The position numbers were made by a program, and so were the translations under genes. The notes below the pieces were generated by a model that did no database searches, was not told the origin of the DNA, and saw nothing but the letters and a program-made list of their open reading frames with translations. This document shows, piece by piece, positions 32,054 to 64,000 of a stretch of 64,000 nucleotides of DNA (position 1 is its first letter; every line of letters begins with the position of its first letter). Source of the stretch: a virus. The stretch covers positions 1 through 64,000 of the IMG/VR virus record IMGVR_UViG_3300045988_059940, one strand, 5' to 3'.

Positions 32054-32722
32054 TTATTTCTAATTTGTTTCTACTACTCTTACATCTGATGTTTTAAGTA
32101 GTTCGTTTGTATTTATAATATCATACTTATAAACAGTTACTTTTTTAAAGTCTAATGTAAATAACCGTTTAAAGAATGACTTTTTATTCTTATATTGTTT
32201 CTTTTTATAGATATACAAATATTGAGTATTATTTACTTTCAATCTTATATTTACTGTATCTTTACCTATTGTATATTCTACTGTTGTAAGGTCGTTATAG
32301 TTTATAGTATCTTTATATACACTATCTTTAATAATAGTTTTTACTATATCCTACCCCCTTACCCCCTTAGACTTATTAACGTATATTTCCTATGTCTAAG
32401 TTGCAGCAGTATTTATGTGACTAGGTTTTATCTTATTTTTTCTGGCTACACTATCTAGTTTGTGTAATAGCGAATCGTTCTAGTCCTTCAATCTTGTCAT
32501 ATCTAATTTTAGAACATTGTTAGCCTACTAGGAGCCATTAATTATCCCCTAGTAAGCCTCAATGTTGTTTTGAGCCATTTCTAGCCCTTCTGAGAGCTTT
32601 TTATTCTATTTGTATAGAAATATACTACTAGCGACAGATAATGCCACCAGCGCAATTAAAATGGCCTTAGAGATGATTTTACGATTTCGCTTTATCCAGC
32701 TTATTATCGTTAGAATCTCCAT
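32054..32722 (-). CDS. Spanin-like (Rz/i-spanin-type topology) protein, 222 aa
   Basis: ATG at 32720-32722 after TAA 32729-32731; stop TAA 32054-32056. Nine in-frame TAG, including the adjacent pair 32525-32530. N-terminal hydrophobic helix (KAILIALVALSVASSIFLY) followed by a charged helical region. It lies directly downstream of the holin-like and hydrolase-like genes. Function is inferred from topology and position only. Confidence 0.4.
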
Positions 32723-32945
32723 GTGCACTTAAAAGACTTTTTATTTCTCCAAATTTAGTATTAATATATGTAGTAATACCAAATACGCTGCCTGCATACA
32801 CCAGTGTCTACGACACATACCACAATACTTCGCTTGGTATCTTGTGTTCATTTAAGAAGAACGACAAGAACGTAAGCGCTATACCACTAAATAATGATAC
32901 AGACGCTGTGCTATACTGTACCACTTCTTTACTATGTCTTGTCAT
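32679..32945 (-). CDS. Holin-like small membrane protein, 88 aa
   Basis: Not in the ORF track because it is split by a TAG. ATG at 32943-32945, one nt after the upstream TGA; TAA at 32679-32681; one TAG (32808). Two hydrophobic segments (ASVSLFSGIALTFLSFFL; VLWYVS[TAG]TLVYAGSVFGITTYI) and a charged C-terminal tail. It overlaps the start of the spanin-like gene. Confidence 0.45.
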
Positions 32946-32946
32946 A

Positions 32947-33372
32947 TCATTCTATTGTTAATGTTACGTTACCTTCTTTACAAGCTTTTTCTATAATTGG
33001 ATATAGCTTGTCTACGGTAGCACGAGAGTTTAATACTTTACCAACTGCTTTATTTTCACCTACTAAAATACAACCGTGACTTTGCTCTGCTGAGTTGCCA
33101 GCATGTATCAATACACCAGAAAATGAATTTACGTTCAACAACCTAGGTGTAAATCTCTTAAATCTAGGTGAGAAGCTCCAAGTTACTTCATATGTACCGT
33201 ATGGTATAGCAGTTTCTCCATATATCTTTTGCTCTCCATTATCAAATACGCCATTCTTATTTAAGTCACGAACAGCATCTTCTAGTGTATCACAAAAGTA
33301 TACTCCATCTATATATAGCTTACCGATAGTATATTTATCGCGTAAAGCCGTTCTTTTAATCGTTATTTTCAT
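32947..33372 (-). CDS. DUF5675-like protein; candidate cell-wall hydrolase of the lysis cassette
   Basis: Intact 141-aa ORF. ATG 33370-33372 overlaps the upstream TGA (ATGA); TGA stop at 32947-32949; no TAG. The pattern YGTYEV..S..F....P.L..V..F.GVLIHAGN.....HGCILVG matches my recollection of DUF5675. The lytic role is inferred from the neighbouring genes only. Confidence 0.45.
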   Translation of the reverse strand: MKITIKRTALRDKYTIGKLYIDGVYFCDTLEDAVRDLNKNGVFDNGEQKIYGETAIPYGTYEVTWSFSPRFKRFTPRLLNVNSFSGVLIHAGNSAEQSHGCILVGENKAVGKVLNSRATVDKLYPIIEKACKEGNVTLTIE

Positions 33373-34514: not shown

Positions 34515-34556
34515 AAAACAAAAATAGCTGGAACGGGAATTAACCCATCCCAGCTA
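34515..34556 (-). terminator. Rho-independent terminator-like hairpin after the 344-aa structural gene
   Basis: Minus-strand RNA reads AGCUGGGA-UGGGUUAAUUCCCG-UUCCAGCU. This is an 8-bp stem including one G.U (arms at 34526-34533 and 34548-34555), followed by AUUUUUGUUUU. Confidence 0.6.
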
Positions 34557-34565
34557 TAAGGGAAA

Positions 34566-35600
34566 TTAAACAAGCTTATTTAATTCAGTCTCAACTAAAC
34601 CAAGTTGACCCTTCAAACCATAAATTTCAAGACACTGGCTCGTCTTACGAACGATGTCGTCAGCAGCACGATAGCTGTTTTCAAACTCTAACGTAAGAGA
34701 ATCGTACTTAGCGCCTTTCTGTACCTCCATGTCAGGACGTATAATAGGCCAAGTACCTTCACCACGGTTTAGGATACCCTCATAACCTTGTGCCCAATAT
34801 TCACGGTCACGTACGTGCTTCCAGTTACATTCACCGTCATGACCTTCTGTCTTCTTAATTACAACACCGTCGATGAAGTATTTGTTCTTTGAAGCAAAAC
34901 CAGATGCTGATGGGTCTGTAAAGTATACATTAGCAACAAAGCGAACCTTGTTTGCAGGACTGATTGACATTACGTTGTCGTCATCATCATAAGGAAGCGC
35001 TTCAATCTTCAATGTCGTTTTGTCAGTAGCTCCATCAACAATAGCAGAAGCAATTACACGTGCACGCTTGTATTGTTTGTTGATAAGATTAGCAAGCTTC
35101 TCTGGCAAGTTCTTTTCATTATCACCATCTTTGGTTACATACTCATAAGACTCAGTCCATTTGCGGAAACGATGAGGCATGTCCTTAAACGTCAAGCGTA
35201 CTATAATACGCTTACCAGCCATACCAAGCTTCGTCTTCATTTGCGTAGACATATTCTTGAATTTAATTTCAACAGTATCTTCTGTTTCGTCTTTATATTC
35301 CTTTTTATGTAAACCGCGAACGTCAGCTTTCTTAATCTCGTTAGACCACTTGATAACTGGTTCATAAGTCGTAGCACCAGTGCTATAATCAACCTTTGGT
35401 TGACGCTTATTTTGAATAAGACCAACCTTTACTACATTACCAGTAATTGTTGCACCGACAGTGCCGTCTTCACAGTTCATGAAGATAAACTTACCTGCGT
35501 CAGCAACAGCAGTGTTTGTAGCAGTATCAGCAGGTTTTGCAGCAGCAATAGCGCCAGTGGCGAGATTGCTAATCATTACATTATTTACGTATGTATTCAT
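34566..35600 (-). CDS. Abundant virion structural protein candidate, 344 aa
   Basis: Intact ATG..TAA ORF with no in-frame TAG. It is visibly GC-richer than its neighbours and is followed by a strong hairpin terminator. No family recognised. Confidence 0.7.
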   Translation of the reverse strand: MNTYVNNVMISNLATGAIAAAKPADTATNTAVADAGKFIFMNCEDGTVGATITGNVVKVGLIQNKRQPKVDYSTGATTYEPVIKWSNEIKKADVRGLHKKEYKDETEDTVEIKFKNMSTQMKTKLGMAGKRIIVRLTFKDMPHRFRKWTESYEYVTKDGDNEKNLPEKLANLINKQYKRARVIASAIVDGATDKTTLKIEALPYDDDDNVMSISPANKVRFVANVYFTDPSASGFASKNKYFIDGVVIKKTEGHDGECNWKHVRDREYWAQGYEGILNRGEGTWPIIRPDMEVQKGAKYDSLTLEFENSYRAADDIVRKTSQCLEIYGLKGQLGLVETELNKLV

Positions 35601-38648: not shown

Positions 38649-40172
38649 TTACGCACCTACTGCTGCAATACCGTTGTTTTCCATCTCTGCGTCAGCTGCG
38701 TCACAATACAAAATACCGCAAGCCAGAGGGTTACGTACCATAATACCACTTTCACCTAAGAAGTGAACTTGGTAACCGTCGCGGCTATTAGAACGCATCG
38801 TGTTAATTGAATTGCCATAACCACTAGGTATAACTGAACCACCAGTACACCAGGTTACAAACTCACGTCCTTTACGACAAACCTTAACGACGTTAGATTG
38901 TCCATCACGCATACCGAAATCTACAAACAAGAACGTATAAGACATAAGTGGTTTGCCAGTCAGAGGATGAAGTTGACGGAACATTTCTGCATTGTCAAAC
39001 ATAGCACAGCGTTTCAATGTTAACTCAATACCGTTGGTCATCTTATAGGTAGTAAACTGACCACCAAGCGTAAGTTCTTGACCAGAACCAGTAATAAACT
39101 TAGTATCAATGAGGTTGAAGCTAGCAACTTTTTCCTTCAATACACGGTCGAACTCACGAAGTCCCATCTCTCCTGTAATACCAACAAACTTACGTTCGTT
39201 TGTACCAAGCATATTGTAGCTTAGGTCGAACAGATAATCTTCCAGCAATTCTGACGTAAGAGTAGTGTAATAACGTACGTTAGCAGGAGAAATCTGAGCA
39301 AACAAACCAGCACTGATATTTACAGGACGTCCGTTTGTACCTTTTAACGTATAAGTACCGTCTGCATTACGGTTAGGTTTAGCAAACAGAAGCTTCATTT
39401 CTTCCCTCTTCTTCCATTCACGAAGGGCCTTCCAGTGTTGATAATCAGCCCACAAATAACTCTTCTTACCAGTTTCTGGGTCAGTTAGAGCGATTGCTAA
39501 TACGGTAGAATATGCATCACCAGTAATATCATAAGACAGACGTGAAATAGAAAGCGAGTTACGCATCTTAAATGGCGTCTGATAGTTGATGATGTCAGCC
39601 TCATCTGAGTACTCTTCGTAAGCACTACCAATACGGCTTACTTGACGACCAGGTAAAAGGTATTCGTTTGGAATATATGCACCAGCATAGTTATCTACAA
39701 CATAGCATTCATAAACCCAAGCGTTACCATCCTGATAGGGAACACCGTTTGCACGTACTTGGAAATTATAGTTATCAAATGCCAATAGTGCACCAGGACC
39801 GAAGAAACGCTCTTCTATACCGAGATAAATAGGAGCACCATTCATACCAGCGAACCTATTTGCGTTATTATCGTCGCCAACGCGCTTACCACCAGCCTTA
39901 GCCCAAAGGATATTAACAGCATGGTCTGCATCAATTTGTACTGACCACTCATATTCACTGTTATCAATCGTCATAGTCTTACCAAGACCGCCAGTAAGCA
40001 TGTCAATTACGGTAGATACGCCGTCGTCCTTTGTACCAAATACCAGTGAAAGAAGACCAGCAATCTCATGAGGTTTAGTTAATGCGGCGTTAGAAATCAT
40101 ATTTTCGTCTACAAGACCTGCAAAGCGCTTACCGCGATACAGTTGTAGACCATTAAGTAATGTGTTATTCAT
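38649..40172 (-). CDS. Major capsid protein (crAss-like, HK97-fold class by context), 507 aa
   Basis: Intact ATG (40170-40172) to TAA (38649-38651) ORF with no TAG. It is GC-richer than its surroundings, sits directly after an acidic scaffold-like gene and near portal/TerL, and its size and position match crAss-like MCPs. No search was run. Confidence 0.75.
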   Translation of the reverse strand: MNNTLLNGLQLYRGKRFAGLVDENMISNAALTKPHEIAGLLSLVFGTKDDGVSTVIDMLTGGLGKTMTIDNSEYEWSVQIDADHAVNILWAKAGGKRVGDDNNANRFAGMNGAPIYLGIEERFFGPGALLAFDNYNFQVRANGVPYQDGNAWVYECYVVDNYAGAYIPNEYLLPGRQVSRIGSAYEEYSDEADIINYQTPFKMRNSLSISRLSYDITGDAYSTVLAIALTDPETGKKSYLWADYQHWKALREWKKREEMKLLFAKPNRNADGTYTLKGTNGRPVNISAGLFAQISPANVRYYTTLTSELLEDYLFDLSYNMLGTNERKFVGITGEMGLREFDRVLKEKVASFNLIDTKFITGSGQELTLGGQFTTYKMTNGIELTLKRCAMFDNAEMFRQLHPLTGKPLMSYTFLFVDFGMRDGQSNVVKVCRKGREFVTWCTGGSVIPSGYGNSINTMRSNSRDGYQVHFLGESGIMVRNPLACGILYCDAADAEMENNGIAAVGA

Positions 40173-42000: not shown

Positions 42001-44484
42001 TCAATTCTCCCCAGGAACTTTATTTTTTATAGCCACCTTAGCTTTAAGTCTTTCACGTTCAAGAGCAGCATCATCTTTTTGCTTTTGTAGCTCCATTTCA
42101 TGGTTCATGCGCTTCTTTTCCAAGTCAATCTTAGCATCTTCTATTTCACGCTTTTGACGTGCTTCATAGCGTTTCTAATAAGCATCTTGGTCAATCTTAC
42201 GCAGCTGCGTAGCTTCTCTTGCCATCTCTAATGGGTCTGGAATACCGTTCATATCAATATCCTTATTCTCAGTACCACGATATGTACTAATCTCAGCAAC
42301 TGCAATCTTAGTTTGATTATCAGCATCAATACGATAGCGTTCAAGGTCCATTTCAGCCTCTTTTAGCATAAGTTCTTGTTGCTTAGCTTCATTCTACATT
42401 TGTTGTAATTGCATTTGAGCTTGTTGTTCTTGTTGTTGCTGCTGTTGTTGTAATTGCTCTTGACGAGTTTGCATATCTTGCAGTTTCTGCTTAATGATAT
42501 TGAAGTTATCACTGGTAAGTAATTCCGCTGCTTCAAGTAAGCTAGCGCCATTTTGCATAGCAGGTTGTATAAGCTGTTGAAGTTTTTGTATATTCTCCAA
42601 ATCCTTAGAAGCATCACTTACAAATACATCCATATCTTCATAATAGAACTTCTGTGATATATTTAAGAATGCCCTTTCACCATTATCGAATACATATGAA
42701 AGCTTTTGTTTTCCTGAGTCTTGCCAAGCACCTTTGGCTGTATTTAGCAGCATGTTTAATACTCTGCGCTTACATTGATTGTGTACCCAGAATAAAGGCT
42801 CTGTAATATGTGAAGATTGTACAACAGAACGCTCTACATTACCAACAAGTTCAGATGAACTAATTGCACCTTGACGTTGTTCTGTAATACCAGATATAGT
42901 ACCTGCAAGCTGTTCAATCTTATCCATTAATTGAATATATTCAGATATGACATTACTCATTGTTAAGTCAAGAGCTGTAATCTAATTGAACTGAGCAGGT
43001 TTTCCACCTTCTCTCCCTGGCACATTCCAACCTTCGTCATATGGATTAATGAAGTTTACACCAACACTCGATAGATAGTGCATCCAACGTTCTGGTGTAA
43101 TATTCATAGACTTAGGTATCTATGTAATGTCCATATTTACAACCTTACCTTTATCTCTTGCAATAGCCAACTCCAACCTATACCACAATACAATATACAT
43201 GTATTGTAGAGGTTTAAGGATACTAACCAAAGACCTGGGCCTACTATTAGTATTGCTGTATACACAACCACAATATGGAAGCTTTTGTGAATTAGGATTA
43301 TCAAGACTTACAAATTGATACTCTATTGGTTGTATACCGAAGTATAAGTCATTTCCTGCTTTATATCCTTCCCAGACCTCTATAATCCAGTCTGGTTCTA
43401 CTGCTAGTTCTGTACCTACCTTCTTGTATGTCTCATCACATATATTGATTTGTGGTTCACCATTTTCGTCCATCGTGGTCACATAGAATATCTTCTTGAA
43501 AGATTTCCAGCAACAGTGATATACATCTACATGGTGTTTAGAGTTCATGTCTCCACCGTCTGAAAGGTCAATAGAACGCATTCTAATGCCCTAGAACGTA
43601 TCAACACCATCCTTCTCGATGTTATCTACACCAGGTGCACCAGAGAGCATCTCATTGAGTTTATTTAGCTCTTTTTCACTAAGTTTATCATAATACCTAT
43701 CATACACCTCTTGTATAGGTAATTTCATCTTACGAACACACCAAGAACCATCTTCTATAAACTCTAAATCTGGACTCTTATCATAATTAAAGTATAAAGG
43801 ATTTACACGTTCTGCATAAGGGTCACCATTTTGTACACCAACATAATATACTTCTGTACCACTAATTAGACCGTCTTTCCAACCTTTAATAAATTCGTTA
43901 GCTAAACCTAGTTTTTCTTTTAAGTACTCCAATGTGTGGTATGCTGTGTTTTCTATAATATCTTTGTAGTCCTTATCCATATATTTAGCAATAGCTTCTG
44001 GTGGCATTATCTCCCCAGATTGCAGTTGTTGTTCAAACTGCTACTGCTCTTCTGGACTCATTTTTGATTTTATTGATGCCATTATATACTACATCAACAT
44101 ATCCTTTTCTTTGTCTTGCAGCTCTGATACAGCATCCTGTGATGTACGTATAACTCTAAAATTCATTGGTCGTTTTGTTTCTTCACCAATTAATAAGTCT
44201 ATCTTTGGACGTACTATATTAAAGTCCTGTGGAGTAGCAGGAAATCCATCATCTACCTTAAATGGATTGGTTATACGTTTAAAGTCGTCCTCATTGAACA
44301 CACTATTGTATAAATCATAGTATGTTTGCATTTCACTAACATTACTACCTTTAACTAGTGCTGAATTACTTTTTGATTCGCCTATGATATAATCGACACA
44401 CTTATGTTGCCAATCCTTATCTTTCTTTGTAAGTGGTAGTTTTTGTTGCGGAAACGAAGAAGTATGTAAATTACTATCTATCAT
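42001..44484 (-). CDS. Portal protein, 827 aa
   Basis: Five co-framed track fragments (44089..44484, 43591..44007, 43120..43581, 42394..42960, 42175..42369). Seven TAG (44089, 44041, 43591, 43120, 42982, 42394, 42175); gaps and the C-terminal extension were read with no TAA/TGA. ATG at 44482-44484; TGA at 42001-42003. It lies directly after TerL and has a Q-rich coiled C-terminal region. Confidence 0.7.
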
Positions 44485-44488
44485 ATCG

Positions 44489-46785
44489 TTAAAGTGTAAA
44501 TGTCGGTATGTCGTCCTATTCTGTCACATCGTTGTCCCAGTAATTATTACTAAACAATGGCGTTTCAAATAGTTCGACTTGTTTGTTTTTATCTTTATGT
44601 GCTTGTGTTTTTATCTGATATAACTCTTCTCTATATATCATTACCATACACAAAGCAATTACTCTATCGACGTTTCTTATTCCGTCATTTTCAATCAGCT
44701 CCTCTAATAGAGGTTCGCTGTATATTCGTTCTAAGTTTAGTCGTCCTGGTTCATATTCATCCATTAACCATTCTAATATTAGACCTTCTCCATACGCTCG
44801 TATTGATTTGGTCATATGACAACCTTTTCTTCTTTGTACCTTAGAATCTTTAAATATCTCTGAGATTACTTTGTCTGGCTAATCAGCCAATAAGTAATCA
44901 CAGTGTTTATTGGTGAAATAAGGATAAATTCCTTTACGTTCATTTTCAAATAATAGTCTAGCATTATAGAACAACAATAACTTTCTTACGTTCTCATAAT
45001 ACTCTTCTGCTGTATCTGGTCTACCAGAATACTCAGCTACTATTACGTCATTCCAAGCTTCACCTGCTTGCACGCGTTTAAATATAAATGTAGAGCCTAA
45101 CGAATTAGTAAAGCTCTCATCGTGGTCATCAGTTTGTTATCGTACAGCTTTTTATCTGTACTTCTATATGTTTCCATATAGCCCAGCATACATTATTACT
45201 TTGATAGTATCGGGCACTCGTGGCAAGATTATATTTATTCACTTGCTATGCGTTACGGTGACCTATAACCTTTCGTAATTTATAGGTTTACCACGGTGTT
45301 TCCACATATATTGATTATATAAGGTGTCCTCCGTATTTGCCCGATTTTAGACCCGCTGACTTACGCGTACGGGTCGCACCCCCCTACATATAATCCATAA
45401 GGAGGGTCTTTAACTGGATATTCCCAGATTACAATAGAGCCATGAGGTTTATCATCTTTTTTTAAATGATATGTTGTAATATCACCAGACTTTTTCTCTG
45501 TTGCTACAACATTACCATTCTCAAACCTAAGGTCTACTATATGTTTCATATTCCTAAGCTTTTCGTTTGTTCTAATTCTGGTTAGTTGATTCATCAATAA
45601 CTTTCTAGGGAATATGTTTTTTCCAAGTTCTAATACAGCTTCTTGTGGTTTCAAAGGACGTTCTGATACAAATCTGTCAATAGAAGTCTAACTGGCACCA
45701 CCATCTTTAATAATGTTACGTTGTTTTATTAATTCTTCTATTGCTTTCTCTTTCATTGAGTTTCCATCTTTGTCCATATATATAGGGTTTCCATTTTCAT
45801 CAGAACCCTCCATATTAGACCAAGCTGGAACAAAGAACCCACATTTTTTATCGGTCTATCCGTCATCCCATATGTTTTCAAATCCTAATACATTAAATGC
45901 GTCTGGATTGTAGAATATGTTCTTCAAACCATCAAATGAGCCACCTTCTGTACCACCTGTTCCAAATAGACACAGAAGACCGAAAGCAACACCATCGTCA
46001 GTTTCCACAGCTGGTTGTTCAACACGCCAAGCTGTTTCTAGATTAGGAAACTTACCACCTTCTTCAAATAGTACTAATTTACCACGAGTACCACGAAGAC
46101 GTTCTGGGTCATTCTTCAATGTAATTCCAGTAATGCTTGATAAATAACCCTGTTCAGTCTATTTACCAAATTCATCGGTTACCTTAAAACCAGCAACACG
46201 TTCCATACGAGTACTTGTAAGACGCTGTTTAGACCAGTCTGTATGTTTATCCACAAAGTCCATTATCTACCAGGCTTTGGTTAATATACCATCACCGATT
46301 AAGAATTTTTGTTCTGATGCTACTGCGAAGTTTTTAGAGCCTGGTATCAATTCATAGTTGCGCACTAGCATTGATGCACCTTTAAAACTATATCCTCTCT
46401 GCCTACATTTTAATGTAGCCATATGTTTACCTTGCTCTTCCGCTTCTTCTATTGCATGATAGTAGTAGTAATCGTAATCCCAAAATCTAGGGAAACCAAA
46501 TATACGCTCACGTCTTGTACGTTTTGCACCATATCTGTCTGTATACTCTACTTCTTGCAGTTTCATAATTGGGCTATAATTCAAATAAAAGTAATGATAA
46601 CCAGTTATAGCATCTCCATCGGGAGCTACATACCCATTTATACATCTGTCAGTCTCTCTGTCCCAATATGAATTATAGTCAGTAGTACCTCTTGGTGCAA
46701 GAGTATAACAACCATGTTCCTAAAAAAATATTGCGGCTTCACGGAATTTATCTGAGTTTATCACTCTCTTATTAAAATCAACCAT
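44489..46785 (-). CDS. terL: Terminase large subunit, split: exon 1 46785..45369, exon 2 45129..44489 (685 aa after removal of 45130..45368)
   Basis: 1417+641 nt = 686 codons. ATG at 46783-46785, just after the upstream TAA; TAA at 44489-44491. Walker-A-like KCRQRGYSFKG, Walker-B LVLFEEGG, GTGGTEGG, and nuclease-domain GGCDPY|DHDES...VAEYSGRP...LLFENE. Seven in-frame TAG (46720, 46267, 46159, 45856, 45688, 44879, 44516). Exon 1 and exon 2 frames differ by exactly the 239 nt removed. Confidence 0.8.
45130..45368 (-). other. Group-I-like self-splicing intron candidate (239 nt, no ORF) inside terL
   Basis: The TerL frame hits TAA at 45361-45363, and the downstream frame only opens after TAA 45137-45139. 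Exon end GACCCGU (45375-45369) pairs with intron GCGGGUC (45356-45350), giving a terminal U.G at the 5' junction. The intron ends in G (45130). GNRA hairpin CUAUAUG-GAAA-CAUAUAG at 45164-45181. There is an 8-bp long-range pairing between 45338-45345 and 45209-45216. The segment is GC-richer and denser in stops than its flanks. Confidence 0.65.
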
Positions 46786-56357: not shown

Positions 56358-59300
56358 TTATAAGGTGATTGTATATTTGTCCTATGTGGTTATATTATAT
56401 GCAGATAAATCTTGCGGTAATGATTCTTTCAATGTCATTGCTACTGCTGATAGACTATCTAATTGTTTATTCATGTCATACTTTGCAGTATTCTTATCTT
56501 CATTCACCGTCCAAACACCTTTTATTTGTTTAGCTGTAATATCTATTTTACTATCTGACATTTCATACACTACATACATGGGGTAATGTTGCTTAACATT
56601 TTCCTTCGGTGTAACTTCACTAGTCTTAGCTTTAAAATATGCTAACAACCAAGGTATTTGATAATCTGGCCCAGACGGCTGTTCTTTGTTTGAAACTAAC
56701 TTCCAACCAGTTGCCTATGACATAACATATGTTGGTGCATTGATTTTATCTACTATTTCAAATCTTGCAAATTGTAACCAATCATTATTTATATCTGATG
56801 CCTTTGTTACCTAAATTACTGGTTTTCTAGAAACACCTTCTGTTACTTCGCCCATAAACTCAACGGCTGTATTTTGCCTGTTATTCTATATATAATCAGC
56901 TGGTGCATCATATATTGGTTTACTTATACTATAAGTATGTTTGTGACCACCAAATACTAATCGTATACCATACTTCTTAAACAATCTAGAAAACCTATAT
57001 GTACCATTGTTATTTAGTGTATTTAAGTGTGAACCACTACGTCCTTTTACACCATTCATGAAGTCCCAGGTTACGATTGTAAATGGCATTTCATGCATAT
57101 AACAAAGTGTATTTTTACAGTCAGTTGGATTCTCTACACCATAGTATATCTATAAATCTTTCTTTAACCAATCTTCAATTTTAGCGTTCATTGTTTTAGC
57201 AAAGGTAGCATCGCCAGAGTTTGTACTAATGTTCCAATCATCTGTATACACTTTACTAGTAGCTACCGCATTTTCTGAATTAATAGATATGAAATGGAAT
57301 TTCCCATAATTAAACGAATATGTAGAATACATTAAACATTTCTTCCCATTCCATGTTAATTCATATTCATTGTTTGGGTCTAGCTCAAATGTAAAGTATT
57401 TCAATACATTTACATGGTTATATTTAGATGTAACATCATCACCGTCTGTTAGTTGTGTAGCATTATGTCCACACAAGTCATTGTTACCAACAGTAAACAT
57501 TTCAGTTTTATCACCTAAGAACTCGTCTAGTGCTTGATAGTAATCTAACCATTCATTCTCCCTATTACCGTTCTAAGTAATATCTCCTGTATTTATCAAG
57601 AAGTCTGCGTCTTGTTGGTCTTGTGCTAACATCTTGGCCGATTTACGCCAAGCCTGGTAATCTATCCAACTGAACCCTTGTTGGTCAGTTTCTTGTACGA
57701 ATTTAAAAGTTGTTACCTCTGAGTTGTCTTTGACCGTTAACGTCTTAATTGTACTATAATATGACTCGTCAAAGTCTCTTCCTATGCGATATTCATATAC
57801 GCCAGCTTCAAACTATTCACTTAATACTACCTTATGAGTAGTAACCATTGTACCGCGTACCGTCTTCCAGCGTAATCTTTCATAATGGTCTATGAACTTA
57901 TTTATAACAGCTGAGTTAGAAGAATCATCTCTTGTTATAGAATATTGTTTCTTCCATTCAGTTTGTCCTTTTTTACGATATTCTATAAACTCATCGTAAT
58001 ATCCGACAGATACCCAATTGAAGCATCTAGAAGCCTTTTTGTGATTTGCTGTATCGGAAGTGGCTTGAATACCAAATGTACACCTTATGCAGTTTGGTTT
58101 ATTCTTATTGAACTCTGTTTTATCTGTAAAGAAGTTTTTACCCTCCCATGATGCTTTTGGTGTATATTTCTCTTTCATCTCATCTAGATAGTAATACTGT
58201 ATACTATTACCTATCTTTGTAGTTTGACGTTTAAGATTTACATATATCCATAAGCTTGTAGACTTTCTAGCACCATATGCTTTATTACCCTATTTGGCTG
58301 GTTCTAACATAAACCTACGTATAAATAGCGCATCATTCCAAGAATCTCCTGGCTCTAATAAGAATGTAGTTCCACCTTCACTTAACGAGCCTACACCAAA
58401 TCCACAGCTATCTATATATCCTTTATTTACCTTTTGTTTATTCCAAGGTGAAGCTAACTCTCCAACAGCATATAGATTACCATTGGAATCGTACACCCAG
58501 TTATCTGTTGGACTACCAACACACAAATAGAAGCTAGAACAAGTTTGGCTAAACTTTATTAGTTCACCATTTGAGAACCACTCTTGGTCATATGTATTAA
58601 CATCAATGAATTGAGAGTTATAATCATTACATTTAGCTCCTCGTATTAAATATGTAGAGCCTGCTTTTATTACACCACTTAGCGGTAATGTGTGCCACTT
58701 GTATCCGTTTGTACCTCCACCATATGGTGTACCATCTGTATAGAGTAGATATATACCATTTAAGTTAATATCTTCTGTTGAACCATTTGCAAGCTCTACA
58801 AAGTTGTGTGAACACATACAGTCTTCTGAACCTTGTCCACCGCAATATACTTCATTTATACAGAGTAGATGATTTATAAATACACCCCAAGACCCATCTG
58901 GGTTACCTATACCAGTTGGAGTTTGTATATTCTTATGTATCATAAACTCGCCAGACTTACTTACTTCTACTTTGTATGTAGATTCACCGTCTGTAAAGTT
59001 TAGATACCTTAGTTTCGTAGCATATAAATCTTCTACACTAATTCCACCACCAGAACCTCCTGAGCCACCATCTGTTGTGCCTACAAGATTGAACTTCCCA
59101 TCTTTATATAGAACTAAACGTTTTTTATCTGTATAGAATAGTATTTCACCGTCTATTAGGTTTTGTCTATTCTTATTGAAATTAGCTACTGTATCCATCT
59201 TTATAGATACATGATTTACAGTAGGTTCTATTCCTTCTGTATTAGGTTTATCTTTAACTATACCTGGAATATCTTTTGATTCCTTTGGTTTAAGAGGGTC

Positions 59301-60029
59301 TGCTGAACGCATGATAATTTCCCTAGCACTAGAATGTGCATCACCAGCTACTACACCGTTGAGTATTATTTTATTTACAACACTCATGTTTTTGTATATT
59401 TCAGCGAGTGCTGCTTTTATCTTCTTTAACTCATCAGCATCATTCTATGTTAGATTTGTAGTATCACGAGTGTCTATCCACAACTTGCTTTTATCCTCTG
59501 GTGCAATTTGTCCAACATATATCTACGAACTTGATATTTCTGATAAACCTGTTGATAACAGACGATATAATACGCCTGTTGTTTTATTATATATTATTTT
59601 TGTAGATGCTTCTTTGTAATCATCAGATGACCCATAATTATCAGTGGATGCCCACTGTGCATATGCAAAACCTGCCTTTATTGCTAGGAATTTTTTATGT
59701 GCGTCACTGTATACTATTTTATCGTAAGTATTTGCTACGTTTACATCATCGATAGTATATATTGTCGTATCTATTGAATCTATTGTTAATACGTCAGACT
59801 TACGACCATTCTGCTTTATTTTTTTTAATATTTCATCAATGTTTATATCTGGCTATTGTGCCTATAAACGCTCTACAATACGTTTAATGGAGTTGGCATC
59901 AAATATATCCCCATCTTCAAACTAATGGTTATTGATATATTCGCCACGCTATAACATGATTACTTTTGGAGTCCTAGGTATATCTATGTTATCAATAATC
60001 CTAGTACCAAATAGTTTTGTTTTTTTCAT
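56358..60029 (-). CDS. Tail fibre-like protein with lamin-tail-like and metallophosphoesterase-like domains, 1,223 aa
   Basis: ATG at 60027-60029 (in-frame TAA 60039-60041); TAA at 56358-56360. Five co-framed fragments plus 59388-60029 were read: 14 TAG, no TAA/TGA. LTD-like segment INEVYCGG...HNFVELANGSTEDINLNGIYLLY. Phosphoesterase-like motifs LINTGDIT[TAG]NGN, VGNND and FGGHKH. Linker GGSGGSGGG. Confidence 0.65.
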
Positions 60030-60049
60030 GTGCTATAATTAAAAGATTA

Positions 60050-60090
60050 TACAAACAAGGAAAGGGGACCCCTTATCGGGACCCCCTTTT
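60050..60090 (-). terminator. Strand-specific hairpin + U-rich tract after dut (terminator/attenuator) at the code boundary
   Basis: Minus-strand RNA reads GGGGGUCCC-GAUAA-GGGGUCCCC (60086-60064). This gives 9 contiguous pairs including two G.U, followed by UUUCCUUGUUUGU. On the plus strand the two wobbles become A-C mismatches. It sits only about 35 nt upstream of the first recoded gene's ATG. Confidence 0.5.
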
Positions 60091-60144
60091 ACCTGCGAGA
60101 TATTGCCAGTCTATGTACGCCATCTCAGGTAAGCTTGTTACGCG

Positions 60145-60705
60145 TCACTCGCTTACTTCAGTGTCTTCCGTCGACACCACCGCTTCTGGCTCAAATTCTT
60201 GCTCAGCTTGTACGGCATCGTTTGTGCTGCTAGCTTCCTGTGCAGAATTATTATTCAGTGCGCTCAATTTCTCATCGCTGGAACCATATCCACCTTCCCC
60301 GCGTTCTGTTTCGCTAAGTTCCGTTACTTCTGTTACTGTAACTTCTGGAATCGGCATTACAATCAATTGTACAAAACGTTCCCCAATTTGGTATAATGCA
60401 GGAGCGCCGTTTGTTGTAATGTGCATCTTTGCTGTTACTTCTCCCCTGTATCCAGCGTCTATTACGCCAACACAGTTTGTCATAAACATTGATTTCTTAG
60501 CAATACTAGAACGAGGAAAGAGATAGCCTACGTAACCTTCTGGAATTTCTATCGCTAGACCAGAATGATATACTACAACCGTTTGACCAGCATCGTTTGG
60601 TTCTAATGTAATATCAACCGCTGTAAGGTCAAGTCCTGCGTCATTCTTATGTGCGCGTATAGGCATTATAGCCTTGTCATTCAATCTCTTAATTTTTAGT
60701 TCCAT
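60145..60705 (-). CDS. dut: dUTP diphosphatase (trimeric dUTPase) with an acidic C-terminal extension, 186 aa
   Basis: All five dUTPase motifs are present: AGLDL, PRSS, GVIDAGYRGE, GERFVQL and RGEGGYGSS. ATG at 60703-60705; TGA at 60145-60147; no in-frame TAG. Confidence 0.9.
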   Translation of the reverse strand: MELKIKRLNDKAIMPIRAHKNDAGLDLTAVDITLEPNDAGQTVVVYHSGLAIEIPEGYVGYLFPRSSIAKKSMFMTNCVGVIDAGYRGEVTAKMHITTNGAPALYQIGERFVQLIVMPIPEVTVTEVTELSETERGEGGYGSSDEKLSALNNNSAQEASSTNDAVQAEQEFEPEAVVSTEDTEVSE

Positions 60706-60731
60706 GTATTATTTTATATTAATTTATATAG

Positions 60732-60819
60732 ACGCCCCAGTAGGAGTCGAACCTACCCTGTCACCTTCAGAAGATACGCGGTTTTAGAGACCGCCAGTGC
60801 CACCGTACACCATAGGGCG
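60732..60819 (-). tRNA. Suppressor tRNA, anticodon CUA (reads UAG), class II-like with ~21-nt extra arm
   Basis: Minus-strand sequence: CGCCCUA UG GUG-UACGGUGG-CAC U G GCGGU CU-CUA-AA ACCGC [GUAUCUUCUGAAGGUGACAGG] GUAGG UUCGACU CCUAC UGGGGCG U. Features: 7-bp acceptor stem, 5-bp anticodon stem, 7-nt loop with U33 and A37, canonical T arm, 88 nt in total. CCA is not encoded. Confidence 0.8.
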
Positions 60820-60976
60820 TTATGACGCTGTTTAAAGACTCACACGTCAACGTCTATGAGAAATCGTATTTTTACGTACTAATGGTGAATAATAGCACGG
60901 TGCGGAGGTCGTTATAGTCAGACCGCCATGACTTTGTAAAATTATGCCTAAACAAAATAAAAATATTTTATTATAG

Positions 60977-61049
60977 TTGCGGAGGATGGATTCGAACCAC
61001 CGACCTCACAGGTTATGAGCCTGGCTATCTACCTCTGATATACTCCGCG
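60977..61049 (-). tRNA. tRNA-Met (anticodon CAU), initiator-like C1xA72
   Basis: CGCGGAG UA UAUC-AGAGGUA-GAUA G CCAGG CU-CAU-AA CCUGU GAGGUC GGUGG UUCGAAU CCAUC CUCCGCA A. Clean cloverleaf. The first acceptor pair is a C-A mismatch. A lysidine-modified Ile reading cannot be excluded. Confidence 0.8.
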
Positions 61050-61144
61050 ATATGTGCAGTTTTATAGATGCTGCACTCATCTTAATTATTTTTCCTATTA
61101 AATATGAAACAATTGATTTGTTATAATTTTAAACTTTTTAACAA

Positions 61145-61234
61145 TCCCTAGAATACGAGTCGAACGTACATCTTCAATAAACATTGGCATGCATATTTAT
61201 TGTTGTGCTAATTTACCAATTACACCACCTAGGG
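61145..61234 (-). tRNA. Atypical tRNA-like gene (90 nt); acceptor, D and T arms canonical, anticodon arm aberrant; anticodon unassignable
   Basis: CCCUAGG ... UCUAGGG acceptor stem (7 bp), D region with GG (GUGU-AAUUGGUAAAUUA-GCAC), and T arm GUACG-UUCGACU-CGUAU. Between them lies a 7-bp stem CAAUAAA/UUUAUUG closing a 14-nt loop UAUGCAUGCCAAUG, in place of a 5-bp stem with a 7-nt loop. Confidence 0.5.
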
Positions 61235-61281
61235 AGGGGGTAAGCCGTTGTTTAAGTCTACGGCTTAAAGACTTATATGTT

Positions 61282-61629
61282 TTAGTTGTTACATGATTGT
61301 GTACAACAGGCATCCGATTCTTTTGCTTTCTTACGCATTTGCATTCGTGCGTTAACAGTGTTTGTTATGTATTCGGCCATTTGATTTCCATTGGTAATGT
61401 CTATTACATCATCGTTGTGCGTAATAAGTATGATTGTACCACTTTTGAAGATTTTATGTTCAGTTACAAAGTCATCGTCATTACGAACGATATTAGTTAT
61501 GTCACTGTCTTCTTCTAGTTTATAGAGTTGACCAAGTGCCCCGCAATATATATCACCGCTTGCACTTCGCAAATATCCACTTTCTTTATCGTGATACTTC
61601 AAATAACCGTCTATTACTATATACTTCAT
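61282..61629 (-). CDS. Hypothetical protein, 115 aa
   Basis: Intact ATG..TAA ORF with no TAG. Its stop is 2 nt from the upstream gene and it is followed by the hairpin at 61242-61266. Confidence 0.6.
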   Translation of the reverse strand: MKYIVIDGYLKYHDKESGYLRSASGDIYCGALGQLYKLEEDSDITNIVRNDDDFVTEHKIFKSGTIILITHNDDVIDITNGNQMAEYITNTVNARMQMRKKAKESDACCTQSCNN

Positions 61630-61631
61630 AA

Positions 61632-61925
61632 TTACTTATTGTTAGTCAACCAATTCCAAAAACGCTTTACAACATTCTGCTTCTTTTCAACAGGCTTAGT
61701 TTCAACGCTAAGCATTGTAACAGCTTCACCGTATTGGAAACCTTCATCAAAGCCACTATTGTAACCTTCCACACCACACTCTTGTACAGCATAGTCATAA
61801 TCATAAATAGAGATTGGCAGTTTAGCTTTACACTTAGCTTGATTCATCCTATGTATCCAAGCTTCTGGTTTAGTGACATCAACTACATCAACTACAAATG
61901 CGGGCTTATTTACTTTCTTTGCCAT
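61632..61925 (-). CDS. Hypothetical protein, 97 aa
   Basis: Intact ATG..TAA ORF with no TAG. Confidence 0.6.
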   Translation of the reverse strand: MAKKVNKPAFVVDVVDVTKPEAWIHRMNQAKCKAKLPISIYDYDYAVQECGVEGYNSGFDEGFQYGEAVTMLSVETKPVEKKQNVVKRFWNWLTNNK

Positions 61926-62121
61926 TTTGTATTAGCTTTAAAAATTTATTTTTTAGTTTAAACTTAAACAATCCATGAAACAATATTGCCAATGTATTAT
62001 CATCATCTTTCATCTTCTTTTCTGTAAAGTTAAAAGGATGTCTACATACAGCTGTAACAGATTGTTCATCATAACCAGTTTCTTTTTGAACTTCTTTTAT
62101 TATCTATTCTAATGTTATCAT
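61906..62121 (-). CDS. Possible small ORF, 71 codons, containing one in-frame TAG
   Basis: ATG 62119-62121 overlaps the TGA of the upstream gene (ATGA at 62118-62121). TAG at 62104-62106 (codon 6). TAA at 61906-61908, overlapping the next gene by 20 nt. It is missing from the ORF track because of the TAG and fills an otherwise empty 190-nt gap. Confidence 0.35.
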
Positions 62122-62510
62122 TTCTGAATAGCGATGATTCCGAATCTAGAAATAAGAACTGAATCTTTCAACCAATCGAACGTTTGAGCTAAGCCTGGCT
62201 TAAATACAATTACATTTCCAACTTGTATATCTTCTCTGCGATTTGTATCAGCTTTGTAAGTCATAGGAACTTTAATTACTACGCCTTTTGCGTAATCTGA
62301 ATCAACCTCCTTAACCTCAGTCTCAACCTTATCGTAATCAATTACGTCGCCGTCTTTCTGTTTCTTTGACGGAATTGGTTTACTAAATTCTTTCTTTACT
62401 TTAATTGGGTCTAGCTTTTTTACTAGAAACAAATCGGTAAATTCGTAATCAATCTTAGCAGCAATATCTTCTGCTAACTTTGTTTGGTCTATAATCTTTT
62501 TGTCTTCCAT
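62118..62510 (-). CDS. Hypothetical protein, 130 aa
   Basis: Intact ORF. ATG 62508-62510 overlaps the upstream TAA (TAATG); TGA stop; no TAG. Confidence 0.6.
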   Translation of the reverse strand: MEDKKIIDQTKLAEDIAAKIDYEFTDLFLVKKLDPIKVKKEFSKPIPSKKQKDGDVIDYDKVETEVKEVDSDYAKGVVIKVPMTYKADTNRREDIQVGNVIVFKPGLAQTFDWLKDSVLISRFGIIAIQK

Positions 62511-62920
62511 TACTTCTTCAAAGATTTAAGATACATCAAAAGGTCGATGTTACTTTCGATAACGTTTGAATGTTCTTTTTGTAACCAACTCGGTTTGTCT
62601 TCGTTGGCATTAACAAACTTCTTAGCCTCTTCTTGGAACTCTTCAAGTAGGTTGTCAATTTCATCAAAGACATTTACGAATGATGAAGATTTCTTTTCTT
62701 TCTCTTCTTCAACGTAGGCAAATGTACCAAGCTCAACAAGCTCTTTTGCTTTACTTGCGCCAATCTTGAAAACGAAATCGAATGTAGATTGTAACCCTGT
62801 CTCTGAATTTACACCCTTGTGTACTTCAAGTAAATACATCTTACCGTCATCTGATAACGTAAGCGTATCTCCAACTTCAAGTCCGTAGAACGGAGAAATT
62901 ACTTTAATTTTCTTTGTCAT
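62510..62920 (-). CDS. Hypothetical protein, 136 aa (152 if the GTG at 62966-62968 is used)
   Basis: The ORF track start is a non-ATG codon. The first ATG is at 62918-62920, preceded by an A-rich leader. TAA at 62510-62512. No TAG. Confidence 0.55.
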   Translation of the reverse strand: MTKKIKVISPFYGLEVGDTLTLSDDGKMYLLEVHKGVNSETGLQSTFDFVFKIGASKAKELVELGTFAYVEEEKEKKSSSFVNVFDEIDNLLEEFQEEAKKFVNANEDKPSWLQKEHSNVIESNIDLLMYLKSLKK

Positions 62921-63031
62921 GCTTTTTATTTTTGCAAATTTGACCCCATAACGTAAATTTTCATACACTTGGTTGCAAAATGAAAAATATTTTGTTAAAT
63001 ATGCAACTTTTTCAAGTTTTTTACGTTATAA

Positions 63032-63067
63032 GGGAGAGAAGGGGGGATTATAGGGGGGTTAAGAGGG
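63032..63067 (+). other. G-quadruplex-capable G-tract block
   Basis: GGG-AGAGAA-GGGGGG-ATTATA-GGGGGG-TTAAGA-GGG: four G runs of at least 3 with 6-nt loops, in an otherwise very AT-rich genome. Confidence 0.5.
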
Positions 63068-63079
63068 ATTAGAGGAGTA

Positions 63080-63112
63080 TATATAGATTATATAGATATA
63101 TACTATATAGAA
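63080..63112 (+). repeat. Short AT-rich direct repeats (iteron-like)
   Basis: TATATAGAT occurs twice in tandem (63080-63088, 63089-63097), with a third copy TATATAGAA at 63104-63112. ACATATAAAC recurs at 63112-63121 and 63162-63171. TACTATATA recurs at 63101-63109 and 63136-63144. Confidence 0.55.
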
Positions 63113-63183
63113 CATATAAACAGTATTATTCATAATACTATATAACATATACTATCATAAGACATATAAACTATACTATTTGT

Positions 63184-63588
63184 ATGAATAATAAATCTAT
63201 AATAGATACTTATCGTACTATCTATGATATAGACTTAGTAATAGCTAATCAATATACTACATTAGAGAAGTTAAGAAGATTATACAAGTATGAAGATAAT
63301 AGTAATCTTGTTGAAGATACTATGATTGGATTAGCTACTACTTCTCTTGTTGTAAATAAGAAAACTAATCGTAAGTCTGTTTTAGTTAAAATAAATAAAC
63401 TAAAAATACCGAAATATACAGATAAAAAGTTGGAGTTAGTAAACATAGCTGCACATGAAGAAATGCATGTACTATGTGATATATACAGCCGTGTAGGTGC
63501 AGAAGTAGTTTTTAATAATCAAGAACCGTCGGCTTATTTCTTAGGGTGGATTACTCAAAATATTTATAAAACCATGATTTCCAAATGA
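63184..63588 (+). CDS. Small HExxH protein (ImmA/IrrE-like metallopeptidase motif), 134 aa
   Basis: ATG at 63184; TGA at 63586-63588. IAAHEEMHVLCDIY followed 16 residues later by EPSAYFLGW, which resembles the HExxH...E..A.(F) pattern of M78/COG2856 peptidases (recollection). Confidence 0.5.
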   Translation: MNNKSIIDTYRTIYDIDLVIANQYTTLEKLRRLYKYEDNSNLVEDTMIGLATTSLVVNKKTNRKSVLVKINKLKIPKYTDKKLELVNIAAHEEMHVLCDIYSRVGAEVVFNNQEPSAYFLGWITQNIYKTMISK

Positions 63589-63923
63589 ATGACATAGAAT
63601 TAAATGCAATATTATACTACGCTGATTTTCTATCTTTGAAGACTTTAAATAAGCCAATTACTCATACGTGCAAGTACTTTTTTATCCACGGTACGCCATT
63701 AAATGCTACGTATATTGCTACTGGTACACTACAATATGAAGAAGATAATCCATTCTTCTTACAGGCTAGAAAAGAATACGAAACAATTAAAGATAAGTTT
63801 GGTTTAGAGGGTGTAGAAAGCTTCTTAGAAGATATATCTTATCTACGTGCAAGAGGAGCTGTTGATGCTAAACAGATGCTTAGATGTATACATCAATACA
63901 GCACTAGGATAGAAAGAAAGTAG
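63585..63923 (+). CDS. Panacea/DUF4065-like protein, 112 aa to the TAG at 63921 (frame stays open to the window end)
   Basis: ATGA overlap with the upstream gene. The N-terminal LNAILYYADFLSLKTLNKPITHTCKYFFIHGTP resembles the L.KLLYYAD......G.PIT...Y.A...GP core of DUF4065 (recollection). It ends at TAG 63921-63923, after which 25 further sense codons run to position 64000. Confidence 0.4.
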   Translation: MNDIELNAILYYADFLSLKTLNKPITHTCKYFFIHGTPLNATYIATGTLQYEEDNPFFLQARKEYETIKDKFGLEGVESFLEDISYLRARGAVDAKQMLRCIHQYSTRIERK

Positions 63924-64000
63924 GCCTTTACTAGCTATTACAAGTGGTTAGATGAACAGAAATATACACACATTGTACTCGACGATGATGGAAAAGAAGT

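Follow-up and report, generated by a model that had tools for sequence, protein, structure and literature searches.

The window analyzed here is a 64,000-nucleotide (nt) stretch of viral DNA (positions 1 to 64,000 of the IMG/VR record IMGVR_UViG_3300045988_059940) from a crAss-like gut phage in which the amber codon TAG is a sense codon. Near its right end, at about 60.03–60.1 kilobases (kb), an amber suppressor tRNA with the anticodon CUA, hereafter tRNA(CUA), and the dUTPase gene dut adjoin a long minus-strand block of virion and other late genes. Very probably a single genetic code applies throughout the window, TAG is never a terminator, and what changes at this junction is the frequency of TAG, with a suppressor-bearing leader unit placed ahead of the late block. 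A first-pass annotation of the same DNA had described the junction as a sharp genetic-code boundary with a "standard-code side", a description contradicted by the presence of TAG-bearing genes on both sides, of TAG-free genes within the late block, and by the lack of TAG stops.

By hallmark genes and sequence relatedness the window belongs to the Crassvirales, family Suoliviridae, near Bohxovirus. PHROG profiles recognize the major capsid protein (E = 7.8e-122), the portal (E = 1.4e-160) and the large terminase, TerL (E = 1.1e-92), and the portal also matches crAss001 gp20 (E = 1.4e-85). The closest GenBank record is Bohxovirus sp. PV686213.1 (Crassvirales, Suoliviridae, Oafivirinae), with ~68% nt identity across the junction region. 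The relatives used for comparison are 34 loci obtained by a dUTPase-anchored scan of IMG/VR. PV686213.1 itself is represented by positions 49000–98381 of its record (locus L001), such that whole-genome counts given for it cover the second half of the record. Another locus, L007, corresponds to the IMG/VR contig IMGVR_UViG_3300008139_000007; its proteins are 97–98% identical to those of the window, and the two are effectively conspecific.

TAG usage on the two sides of the junction

The features between which TAG usage is compared are listed below, from the late block to the right end of the window.

3–60029, minus strand: TAG-rich virion and late block of 27 contiguous open reading frames (ORFs), open only if TAG is read as sense (stops TAA and TGA only)
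38649–40172, minus strand: major capsid protein (PHROG)
42001–44484, minus strand: portal (PHROG), 7 in-frame TAG
45361–46785, minus strand: TerL (PHROG), 5 in-frame TAG
56358–60029, minus strand: first gene of the TAG-rich block, 1223 amino acids (aa), 14 in-frame TAG, ATG at 60027–60029, first TAG at codon 27
60145–60705, minus strand: dut (dUTPase), 186 aa, no TAG, stop TGA; phrog_135, E = 1.7e-53
61282–61629 (115 aa) and 61632–61925 (97 aa), minus strand: two small TAG-free ORFs of unknown function
61906–62121, minus strand: 71-aa HU/IHF-like ORF, TAG at codon 6 (62104–62106)
62118–62510, minus strand: 130-aa ORF, TAG-free
62510–62920, minus strand: 136-aa ORF (DUF7399; PF24132, E = 4.5e-21), TAG-free, heading the minus-strand gene string together with the 130-aa ORF
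63184–63588, plus strand: first plus-strand gene, 134 aa, TAG-free; phrog_1365, E = 4.4e-12
63585–64000, plus strand, cut by the window end: second plus-strand gene, sense TAG at codon 113 (63921–63923)

Of the 19,778 codons of the late block, 238 are in-frame TAG (1.20 per 100), in agreement with the rate of about 1.2 that the first-pass annotation had given, and the start of its first gene at 60029 is likewise confirmed. Above 60.1 kb, only 2 TAG are found in 1006 codons (0.20%) where 12.1 would be expected (Poisson P = 4.8e-4, Fisher P = 0.0012), a six-fold fall in density that exceeds chance, yet is not absolute. No internal TAG at all had been claimed for this side, over some 910 codons; that figure (186+115+97+130+136+134+112) can be reproduced only by skipping the 71-codon ORF and ending the second plus-strand gene at its TAG at 63921–63923, and homology runs through both codons. 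All complete ORFs, on either side of the junction, stop at TAA or TGA and never at TAG, and homology continues across the in-frame TAGs inside conserved genes. Since no complete gene ends in TAG, nothing on the supposed standard-code side requires TAG to be a stop.

The two TAG-bearing genes above the junction are conserved as such. The start of the 71-aa ORF overlaps the stop of the preceding gene as ATGA, its N-terminus (MI.[LI][ED]...KETGYD) is shared by all related clades, and in each of them the homolog has one or two in-frame TAG, at codon positions that differ by clade; the similarity to HU/IHF proteins is weak (phrog_379, E = 1e-3, aligned from residue 2; PF00216 below the cut-off). 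The second plus-strand gene is 156 aa long in the conspecific contig L007, and in every clade the similarity extends more than 40 residues beyond the TAG of the window, at which the relatives have K, N, E or D, with TAGs of their own at other codons. In L007, whose plus-strand block continues past the position at which the window ends, three genes of that block contain TAG: ThyX (two), a 188-aa ORF and the 156-aa gene. There is a caution here for annotation: if TAG is taken for a stop on the "standard" side, gene callers cut real genes short, one at 63921 and the other, the ORF at 61906–62121, at its codon 6.

These observations bear directly on the notion of a hard code switch, with the standard code above 60.1 kb, an alternative code below, and a hairpin at 60064–60086 serving as a transcriptional gate in time. 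The size of the drop in TAG density, the location of the suppressor upstream of the junction and the conserved hairpin exactly between the two gene sets are all compatible with such a switch, but we consider it unlikely: of the eight genes located above 60.1 kb, two carry sense TAG that is conserved in relatives, ThyX and other plus-strand genes of L007 contain it too, several late genes are without it, no gene on the "standard" side stops at it, and the gating role of the hairpin is itself presumed. The data fit a single code with gene-specific TAG density, which amounts to the soft switch with dual-coded early genes of the Mgcod preprint.

TAG use is heterogeneous among the late genes as well (chi-square P = 0.006). 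The major capsid protein, with 507 codons, has no TAG (P = 0.002), as is the case for three other genes of the block; for the TAG-free 344-aa gene at 34566–35600, P = 0.016. It is possible, if short of probable, that TAG density tracks the amount of protein rather than its timing: with inefficient suppression, highly expressed or dosage-critical genes would purge TAG, and the junction would simply be the end of a run of such genes. The heterogeneity itself and the TAG-free late genes just named, the 344-aa gene being followed by the only other strong intergenic terminator-like hairpin on the coding strand of the window, speak for this explanation, and so does the highest TAG density of the window in a probable lysis-cassette protein (9 TAG in the 222 codons of 32054–32722), which matches the preferentially recoded spanin of Borges and colleagues. 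What it leaves unexplained is why, in nearly all relatives, the TAG-poor genes and the suppressor cluster together at the head of the strand. A timing model could hold alongside it, including the reading favoured here, that of one code with a suppressor-bearing leader unit.

The amino acid at TAG was approached through alignments. At all six conserved-context sites examined TAG aligns with glutamine (Gln): in the RHR..SQRY motif of ThyX, in L007, which carries the same 89-nt tRNA(CUA) as the window; at residues 132 and 697 of the portal, compared with crAss001 gp20; and at residues 580, 819 and 1073 of the 1223-aa protein. At variable sites the residues opposite TAG are T, S, N, K, V and E. 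TAG is probably decoded as glutamine by the phage's own tRNA(CUA).

Conservation of the layout and of the TAG pattern

The arrangement around the junction extends well beyond the window. In 24 of the 34 IMG/VR loci, ARAGORN detects a tRNA-Met followed by tRNA(CUA) in the 1 kb preceding dut, and the order tRNA-Met, tRNA(CUA), dut, hairpin, late gene is kept in most of the 34 relatives; the comparison of synteny across the tRNA–dut–late gene junction, which had been proposed as a check, therefore finds the arrangement conserved. Absence of TAG is equally stable for dut (all 35 related loci), for the 130-aa and DUF7399 ORFs (no TAG in every relative) and for the 134-aa gene (single exception, L025), and so is its presence in the HU-like ORF and the 156-aa gene (nearly all relatives) and in the first late gene (8–18 TAG in relatives). 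The gene-by-gene pattern is kept down to ~41–55% protein identity. An even distribution of TAG on both sides in relatives, named beforehand as grounds for abandoning the idea of a boundary, is not what is seen: the distribution is uneven, but the TAG-bearing exceptions among the TAG-poor genes are conserved just as well. The 115-aa and 97-aa ORFs are restricted to the window's own clade.

The G+C content is locally higher at dut and the tRNAs (0.38, compared to ~0.32 elsewhere), as might be expected if the TAG-free genes were recent arrivals from standard-code sources that have not yet accumulated TAG. Relatives down to the level of protein identity just mentioned also have these genes, again without TAG, and the genes are therefore old residents under selection; recent arrival is effectively refuted, and we assign it hardly any probability.

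The suppressor tRNA and its neighbors

Upstream of dut the following elements were detected.

60731–60819, minus strand: tRNA(CUA), amber suppressor (ARAGORN), 89 nt, with a long variable arm (4-bp stem, 5-nt loop)
60976–61049, minus strand: tRNA-Met, anticodon CAU (ARAGORN; Rfam tRNA, 53.5 bits)
61144–61235, minus strand: element regarded as a tRNA-like relic (ARAGORN only at a lowered threshold, -ps90; no Rfam match)

The end of tRNA(CUA) is 25 nt from the ATG of dut, and the tRNA lies 2.1 kb from the head of the minus-strand gene string. ARAGORN folds it with a 7/5 acceptor/T arrangement, a 4-bp D stem with a 6-nt loop, a C1–G72 pair and U73, and compensatory changes are found in all of its stems. 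It escapes the general tRNA model of Rfam at gathering thresholds; the best Rfam model is that of tRNA-Sec, at 42.9 bits, below the threshold of 47. Most relatives have, at the same position, a tRNA(CUA) of 72–76 nt whose 5' end begins with U, and the 89-nt form occurs in the clade of the window and in two others. The acceptor, D and T arms of the two forms align column by column, the difference being an insertion of ~16 nt in the variable region. Because both forms match through these three arms, the 89-nt tRNA is, on the evidence of the alignment, a derivative of a class-I Gln-type suppressor, one that exceeds the variable loop (4–5 nt) and length (~75 nt) of a canonical class-I tRNA. An origin from tRNA-Ser, Leu, Tyr or Sec, under which TAG would not mean Gln, was rejected as the leading view on the strength of the same arm-by-arm alignment with class-I tRNA(CUA), and no special similarity of tRNA(CUA) to phage tRNA-Ser genes was observed.

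Compared with known suppressors, tRNA(CUA) resembles the supE type (tRNA-Gln with the anticodon CUA) in its anticodon and in the presumed glutamine, and differs from it in the ~16-nt class-II-style variable arm, C1–G72 and U73. The long variable arm, together with a possible eighth acceptor pair (A-1:U73), is reminiscent of tRNA-Sec and allo-tRNAs (Mukai 2016/2017, PMC5389517). In contrast to tRNA-Sec and allo-tRNAs, for which 8/5, 8/4 or 9/3 acceptor/T geometry and a 6-bp D stem are expected, tRNA(CUA) scores below the gathering threshold of the tRNA-Sec family, does not need the eighth acceptor pair in order to fold, has a T stem of 5 bp and a D stem of 4 bp, and carries the anticodon CUA, not UCA. 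A similar tRNA of 91 nt is annotated as tRNA-Gln in Buchavirus cr113_1 (L037, 3013–3103). Long-arm amber suppressors seem to be common in phages: those of at least 84 nt (84–95 nt) account for 38 of 85 tRNA(CUA) genes in a sample (loci L048–L136) that was drawn via the shared anticodon arm CGGTCTCTAAAACCG and comprises viral contigs from ~4 kb to more than 600 kb.

Bacterial initiator tRNAs have an unpaired C1.A72 end, and three G–C pairs are typical of their anticodon stem. The tRNA-Met of the window is initiator-like by inspection, with an unpaired C1.A72 end that is also present in the PV686213.1 homolog, and has two of the three initiator-typical G–C pairs in its anticodon stem. The third member of what had been called a tRNA trio is degenerate, leaving tRNA(CUA) and tRNA-Met as the tRNAs upstream of dut. 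In the element at 61144–61235 the acceptor, D and T arms are conserved, and the anticodon and variable region is degenerate and differs among L003, L004/L007 and the window; it folds with an 8-nt loop or a 9-nt "intron", where a functional tRNA would have a 7-nt loop and a consistent anticodon.

At least three further genomes (two of the 34 loci, L008 and L026, and PV686213.1) have a class-I tRNA(CUA) next to dut that is split by an insertion of 977 nt, which in PV686213.1 occupies L001 16233–17209 and falls inside the anticodon, between ...GGGCUCU and AACCCCAC...; the same insertion is probably also present in L003, L015, L023 and L031. It contains a 301-aa ORF with weak, sub-threshold matches to HNH endonucleases, and just 71 nt of it are non-coding. 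Interpretation as a group I intron is unsupported, with no Rfam match even for the isolated region and only those 71 nt outside the ORF. Such an insertion hides the suppressor from tRNA finders and may explain some of the "recoded genomes without a suppressor".

Two stem-loops and a spacer between dut and the late block

Three conserved elements separate dut from the ATG of the first late gene.

60096–60127, minus strand: conserved stem-loop in the dut 3' untranslated region, also present in the minimum-free-energy fold
60061–60089, minus strand: terminator-like hairpin, 12-bp stem (7 G–C, 2 G.U), loop GAUAA, tail CCUUGUUUGU
60030–60060, minus strand: conserved spacer of 31 nt, CCTTGTTTGTATAATCTTTTAATTATAGCAC, between the hairpin and the ATG

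The terminator-like hairpin begins 56 nt past the dut stop and ends 31 nt short of the ATG. Its folding energy, outer pairs included, is -23.1 kcal/mol on the minus strand and -17.9 on the plus strand, the latter being weaker because the two G.U pairs become A.C mismatches. The 9-bp hairpin at 60064–60086 that had been reported to form only in the minus-strand transcript is therefore real, but it is larger than described, and it is less stable on the plus strand. Hairpins of -18.6 to -23.4 kcal/mol, with differing stem sequences and a U-containing tail, occupy the same place in eight clade representatives. On the coding strand of the whole 64 kb there are only two strong intergenic sites that combine a hairpin with a T-tail, this one and 34524–34557. 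Of the 9 pairs in the stem-loop at 60096–60127, 5 show compensatory double changes across 11 sequences, and the stem-loop pair is accompanied by a conserved loop sequence, GGCGU...GGCAAUAU. The 31-nt spacer is near-invariant even in clades in which the downstream protein is only ~54% identical, and the organization from dut to the ATG is conserved in all clades.

From the GC-rich 12-bp stem, the 5-nt loop, the U-containing tail after the stop codon and the strand specificity conferred by the G.U pairs, all of which are shared with intrinsic terminators, we infer that the hairpin at 60061–60089 is an intrinsic terminator that closes the tRNA–dut unit, even though its U-tract, unlike that of typical intrinsic terminators, is interrupted. 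That the structure is retained in eight clade representatives despite altered stems lends this reading indirect support. The spacer could hold a late promoter or leader, a processing site or a regulator site. Within the window, the spacer motif TTGTTTGTATAAT is not enriched (15 matches with up to 2 mismatches, compared to 11.1 expected), and a scan for sigma-70-type promoters gave background (43 against 37.5 expected) with a model that is unsuited to Bacteroidota or phage polymerases. Rfam has no family for the stem-loops, either in a permissive search of 59.5–64 kb or at the gathering threshold across the whole window, where tRNA-Met alone passes.

A different role for the stem-loops is conceivable, namely that of an element of RNA stability or processing (protecting the 3' end of the dut/tRNA transcript, or cleaved by an RNase) or of a site at which a phage regulator binds to control the adjacent late promoter. 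Two covarying stem-loops, a conserved loop and a near-invariant spacer exceed the needs of a plain terminator, and the U-tract is imperfect; on the other hand, the second of the two hairpins is canonical, with a GC-rich stem, a U-containing tail and a position just behind a stop codon, the region has no match in Rfam, and no repeated motif in the window suggests a regulator site. We regard such a non-terminator role as doubtful, and retain the terminator as the preferred reading of the hairpin.

A proposed role for the suppressor-bearing leader unit

The minus-strand string starts at the divergent region near 62.9 kb with a TAG-poor leader unit composed, in order, of the DUF7399 ORF, the 130-aa ORF, the HU-like ORF, the two small ORFs, the relic, tRNA-Met, tRNA(CUA) and dut. 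This unit closes with the two stem-loops, the second of them terminator-shaped, and is followed by the 31-nt spacer and the TAG-rich virion block. The sequence comparisons establish this anatomy and its conservation, the TAG statistics, and the covariation in the tRNA and the stem-loops; the expression scheme is a proposal. Transcribed first, the leader unit would supply the suppressor tRNA, while the hairpin would limit read-through, such that expression of the late block would require either read-through or a promoter of its own. Assuming that full-length translation of TAG-bearing genes scales with the level of suppressor, TAG density would act as a gene-by-gene delay or attenuator rather than as a block-wide switch; genes needed early or very abundantly, such as dut and the major capsid protein, would avoid TAG, and the TAG-bearing genes among the early ones (the HU-like ORF, the 156-aa plus-strand gene, ThyX of L007) would be held back.

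Several points weigh against this interpretation. Expression timing and transcript termination are deduced from the sequence, as is, from alignments, the residue inserted at TAG. The long variable arm and the C1–G72/U73 acceptor end are atypical of tRNA-Gln. The U-tract that follows the stem is interrupted and holds just 6 U in 10, although the last three stem bases are likewise U, and the folding z-score of the 131-nt region is, taken alone, unremarkable (-1.8). A promoter could lie in the spacer, in which case the hairpin would merely end one unit and not gate the next. Finally, the earlier proposal that the suppressor is expressed ahead of the late genes is sound insofar as a TAG-poor, co-oriented unit lies directly upstream of them, but the TAG-bearing ORF at 61906–62121 precedes the tRNA within this co-oriented string, so that simple sequential expression cannot by itself separate TAG-free from TAG-containing genes.

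A more speculative proposal, which we hold to be rather improbable, is that the junction is a hot spot of decoding-machinery remodelling. The long arm might alter recognition of tRNA(CUA) by a synthetase, a modification enzyme or a host anticodon nuclease, with the consequence that TAG would stand for some amino acid besides Gln or that the suppressor would be shielded from host defence; together with the terminator pair and the TAG-bearing genes embedded among TAG-free ones, the TAG-poor unit would then form a tunable two-layer timer that combines a transcriptional stop with suppressor dose.

Relationship to known recoded phages

Both the layout and the early-suppressor model have been published. 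Yutin 2021 (PMC7886860) describes the same architecture and proposes the same model; the Borges 2021 preprint advances the licensing model and reports variably recoded replication genes and a preferentially recoded spanin; and the Mgcod preprint (Pfennig et al.) finds that, in most of 303 genomes, the recoded strand has the Sup-CTA tRNA at its 5' end, terms the transition a "soft switch" and infers prior expression of the suppressor. Suoliviridae have been described as a conserved code-15 lineage (Cook 2024). The window shares with code-15 crAss-like phages (Yutin 2021, Borges 2021/2022, Mgcod, Peters 2022, Cook 2024) the presence of TAG in portal, TerL and virion genes, a recoded strand that has tRNA(CUA) at its 5' end, early genes poor in TAG, stops that avoid TAG, and, within the lysis cassette, a membrane protein whose TAG load is the highest. 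It differs from them in details that were not encountered in the literature consulted: the TAG step is offset by 2.9 kb from the strand switch, falling within the recoded strand behind a TAG-poor leader, a conserved terminator-like hairpin pair is located at the step, and specific genes of the TAG-poor regions bear TAG consistently across clades.

The standard-code "code-change" operons of Lak, Jade and Agate phages (Borges et al.) offer another parallel, as there too a small suppressor unit free of TAG/TGA stands beside recoded lysis or structural genes. Those operons include a suppressor with or without a release factor and a tRNA synthetase; in the suppressor unit of the window, PHROG and Pfam annotation detected no release factor and no aminoacyl-tRNA synthetase, only tRNAs, dut and small ORFs.

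The value of the present analysis is largely confirmatory, showing that a published pattern and an exact gene order are stable across a whole subfamily. It also provides concrete elements for a timing model, namely the hairpin, the 31-nt spacer and named TAG-bearing genes amid TAG-free neighbors. Four details may be new, and we attach modest weight to them: the long-arm suppressor, the consistently TAG-bearing genes among TAG-free ones, the displacement of the TAG step from the strand switch, and the conserved terminator-like pair of stem-loops.

In-frame TAA in the relative PV686213.1

Four late genes of PV686213.1 (L001 1–15490) contain 24 in-frame TAA in addition to 26 in-frame TAG, and six close relatives of this phage (91–93% nt identity where measured) have TAG only in those genes. 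The changes from TAG to TAA are limited to the late-gene reading frame, and 252 of ~295 TAG trinucleotides are unchanged, which led us to reject base-calling artefacts as their source. The PV686213.1 homolog of the 156-aa gene (L001 19868–20340), an early gene, likewise has TAA at a Gln codon conserved in all relatives. The genuine stops of this phage are still TAA.

An odd conserved tRNA at L001 29072–29143 (Rfam tRNA, 42.7 bits) adjoins a tRNA-Glu and has homologs in L038–L047. Its anticodon loops include CUUUGG (UUG, Gln), CGUUAG, CGUUACG and CAUUAUG (UUA, ochre), and CAGUAUG (GUA); UUA is found in PV686213.1 and several others, UUG in some relatives, position 33 is often other than U, and some of the loops are only 6 nt long. 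This tRNA may be an ochre suppressor that arose from a tRNA-Gln, yet it also occurs in genomes that show no in-frame TAA. Taken as a whole, the sequence of PV686213.1 looks like an incipient or actual reassignment of TAA (together with TAG) to Gln; in the phage recoding literature that we searched, only reassignments of TAG and TGA are reported, and none of TAA.

The plus-strand block of PV686213.1 also contains matches to RAGATH-15 (226 bits; L001 23766–24055) and RAGATH-12 (104.5 bits; 24589–24667), a permuted tmRNA (70.6 bits, threshold 47; 31580–31769) and a sub-threshold twister-P1-like match (28760–28840). A phage tmRNA within a genome that recodes stop codons is of possible interest.

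Other features of the window

Between the two gene strings lies one further element.

62921–63183, no strand assigned: divergent intergenic region, with a G-rich stretch, GGGAGAGAAGGGGGGATTATAGGGGGGTTAAGAGGGATTAGAGGAG, followed by AT-rich short direct repeats and palindromes

The repeats and palindromes are built on ACTATATA and ATATAACATA, and the cumulative GC skew flattens in this region. Divergent promoters are probable here, and a promoter cluster or an origin is possible.

The largest products of the late block have 5502, 2599, 1639 and 1223 aa. The last of these, encoded by the first gene of the block, contains a calcineurin-like phosphoesterase domain (PF00149, E = 7.8e-10) and a lamin-tail domain (PF00932, E = 3.5e-8); it had been taken for a fibre, an identity that is not demonstrable, and related records annotate it as a phosphatase. 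The TAG-free 344-aa gene perhaps encodes a highly expressed virion protein. Directly 3' of it is the hairpin at 34524–34557 (minus strand), with 14 bp and the tail UUUUGUUUUA.

A probable lysis cassette of three genes occupies 32054–33372 on the minus strand.

32947–33372, minus strand: DUF5675 protein, 0 TAG
32679–32945, minus strand: two-helix membrane protein, 88 aa, 1 TAG
32054–32722, minus strand: N-terminally membrane-anchored coiled-coil protein, 222 aa, 9 TAG compared to 3 CAA/CAG

PHROG and Pfam searches of the cassette returned nothing beyond DUF5675 and families of unknown function. Elsewhere in the block, the 474-aa TerL ORF covers just positions 78–546 of a 758-position profile and then ends abruptly; directly after it, 545 nt (44816–45360) are without a long ORF. 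The two together could represent an intron, an intein or a split gene, as reported for crAss-like TerL.

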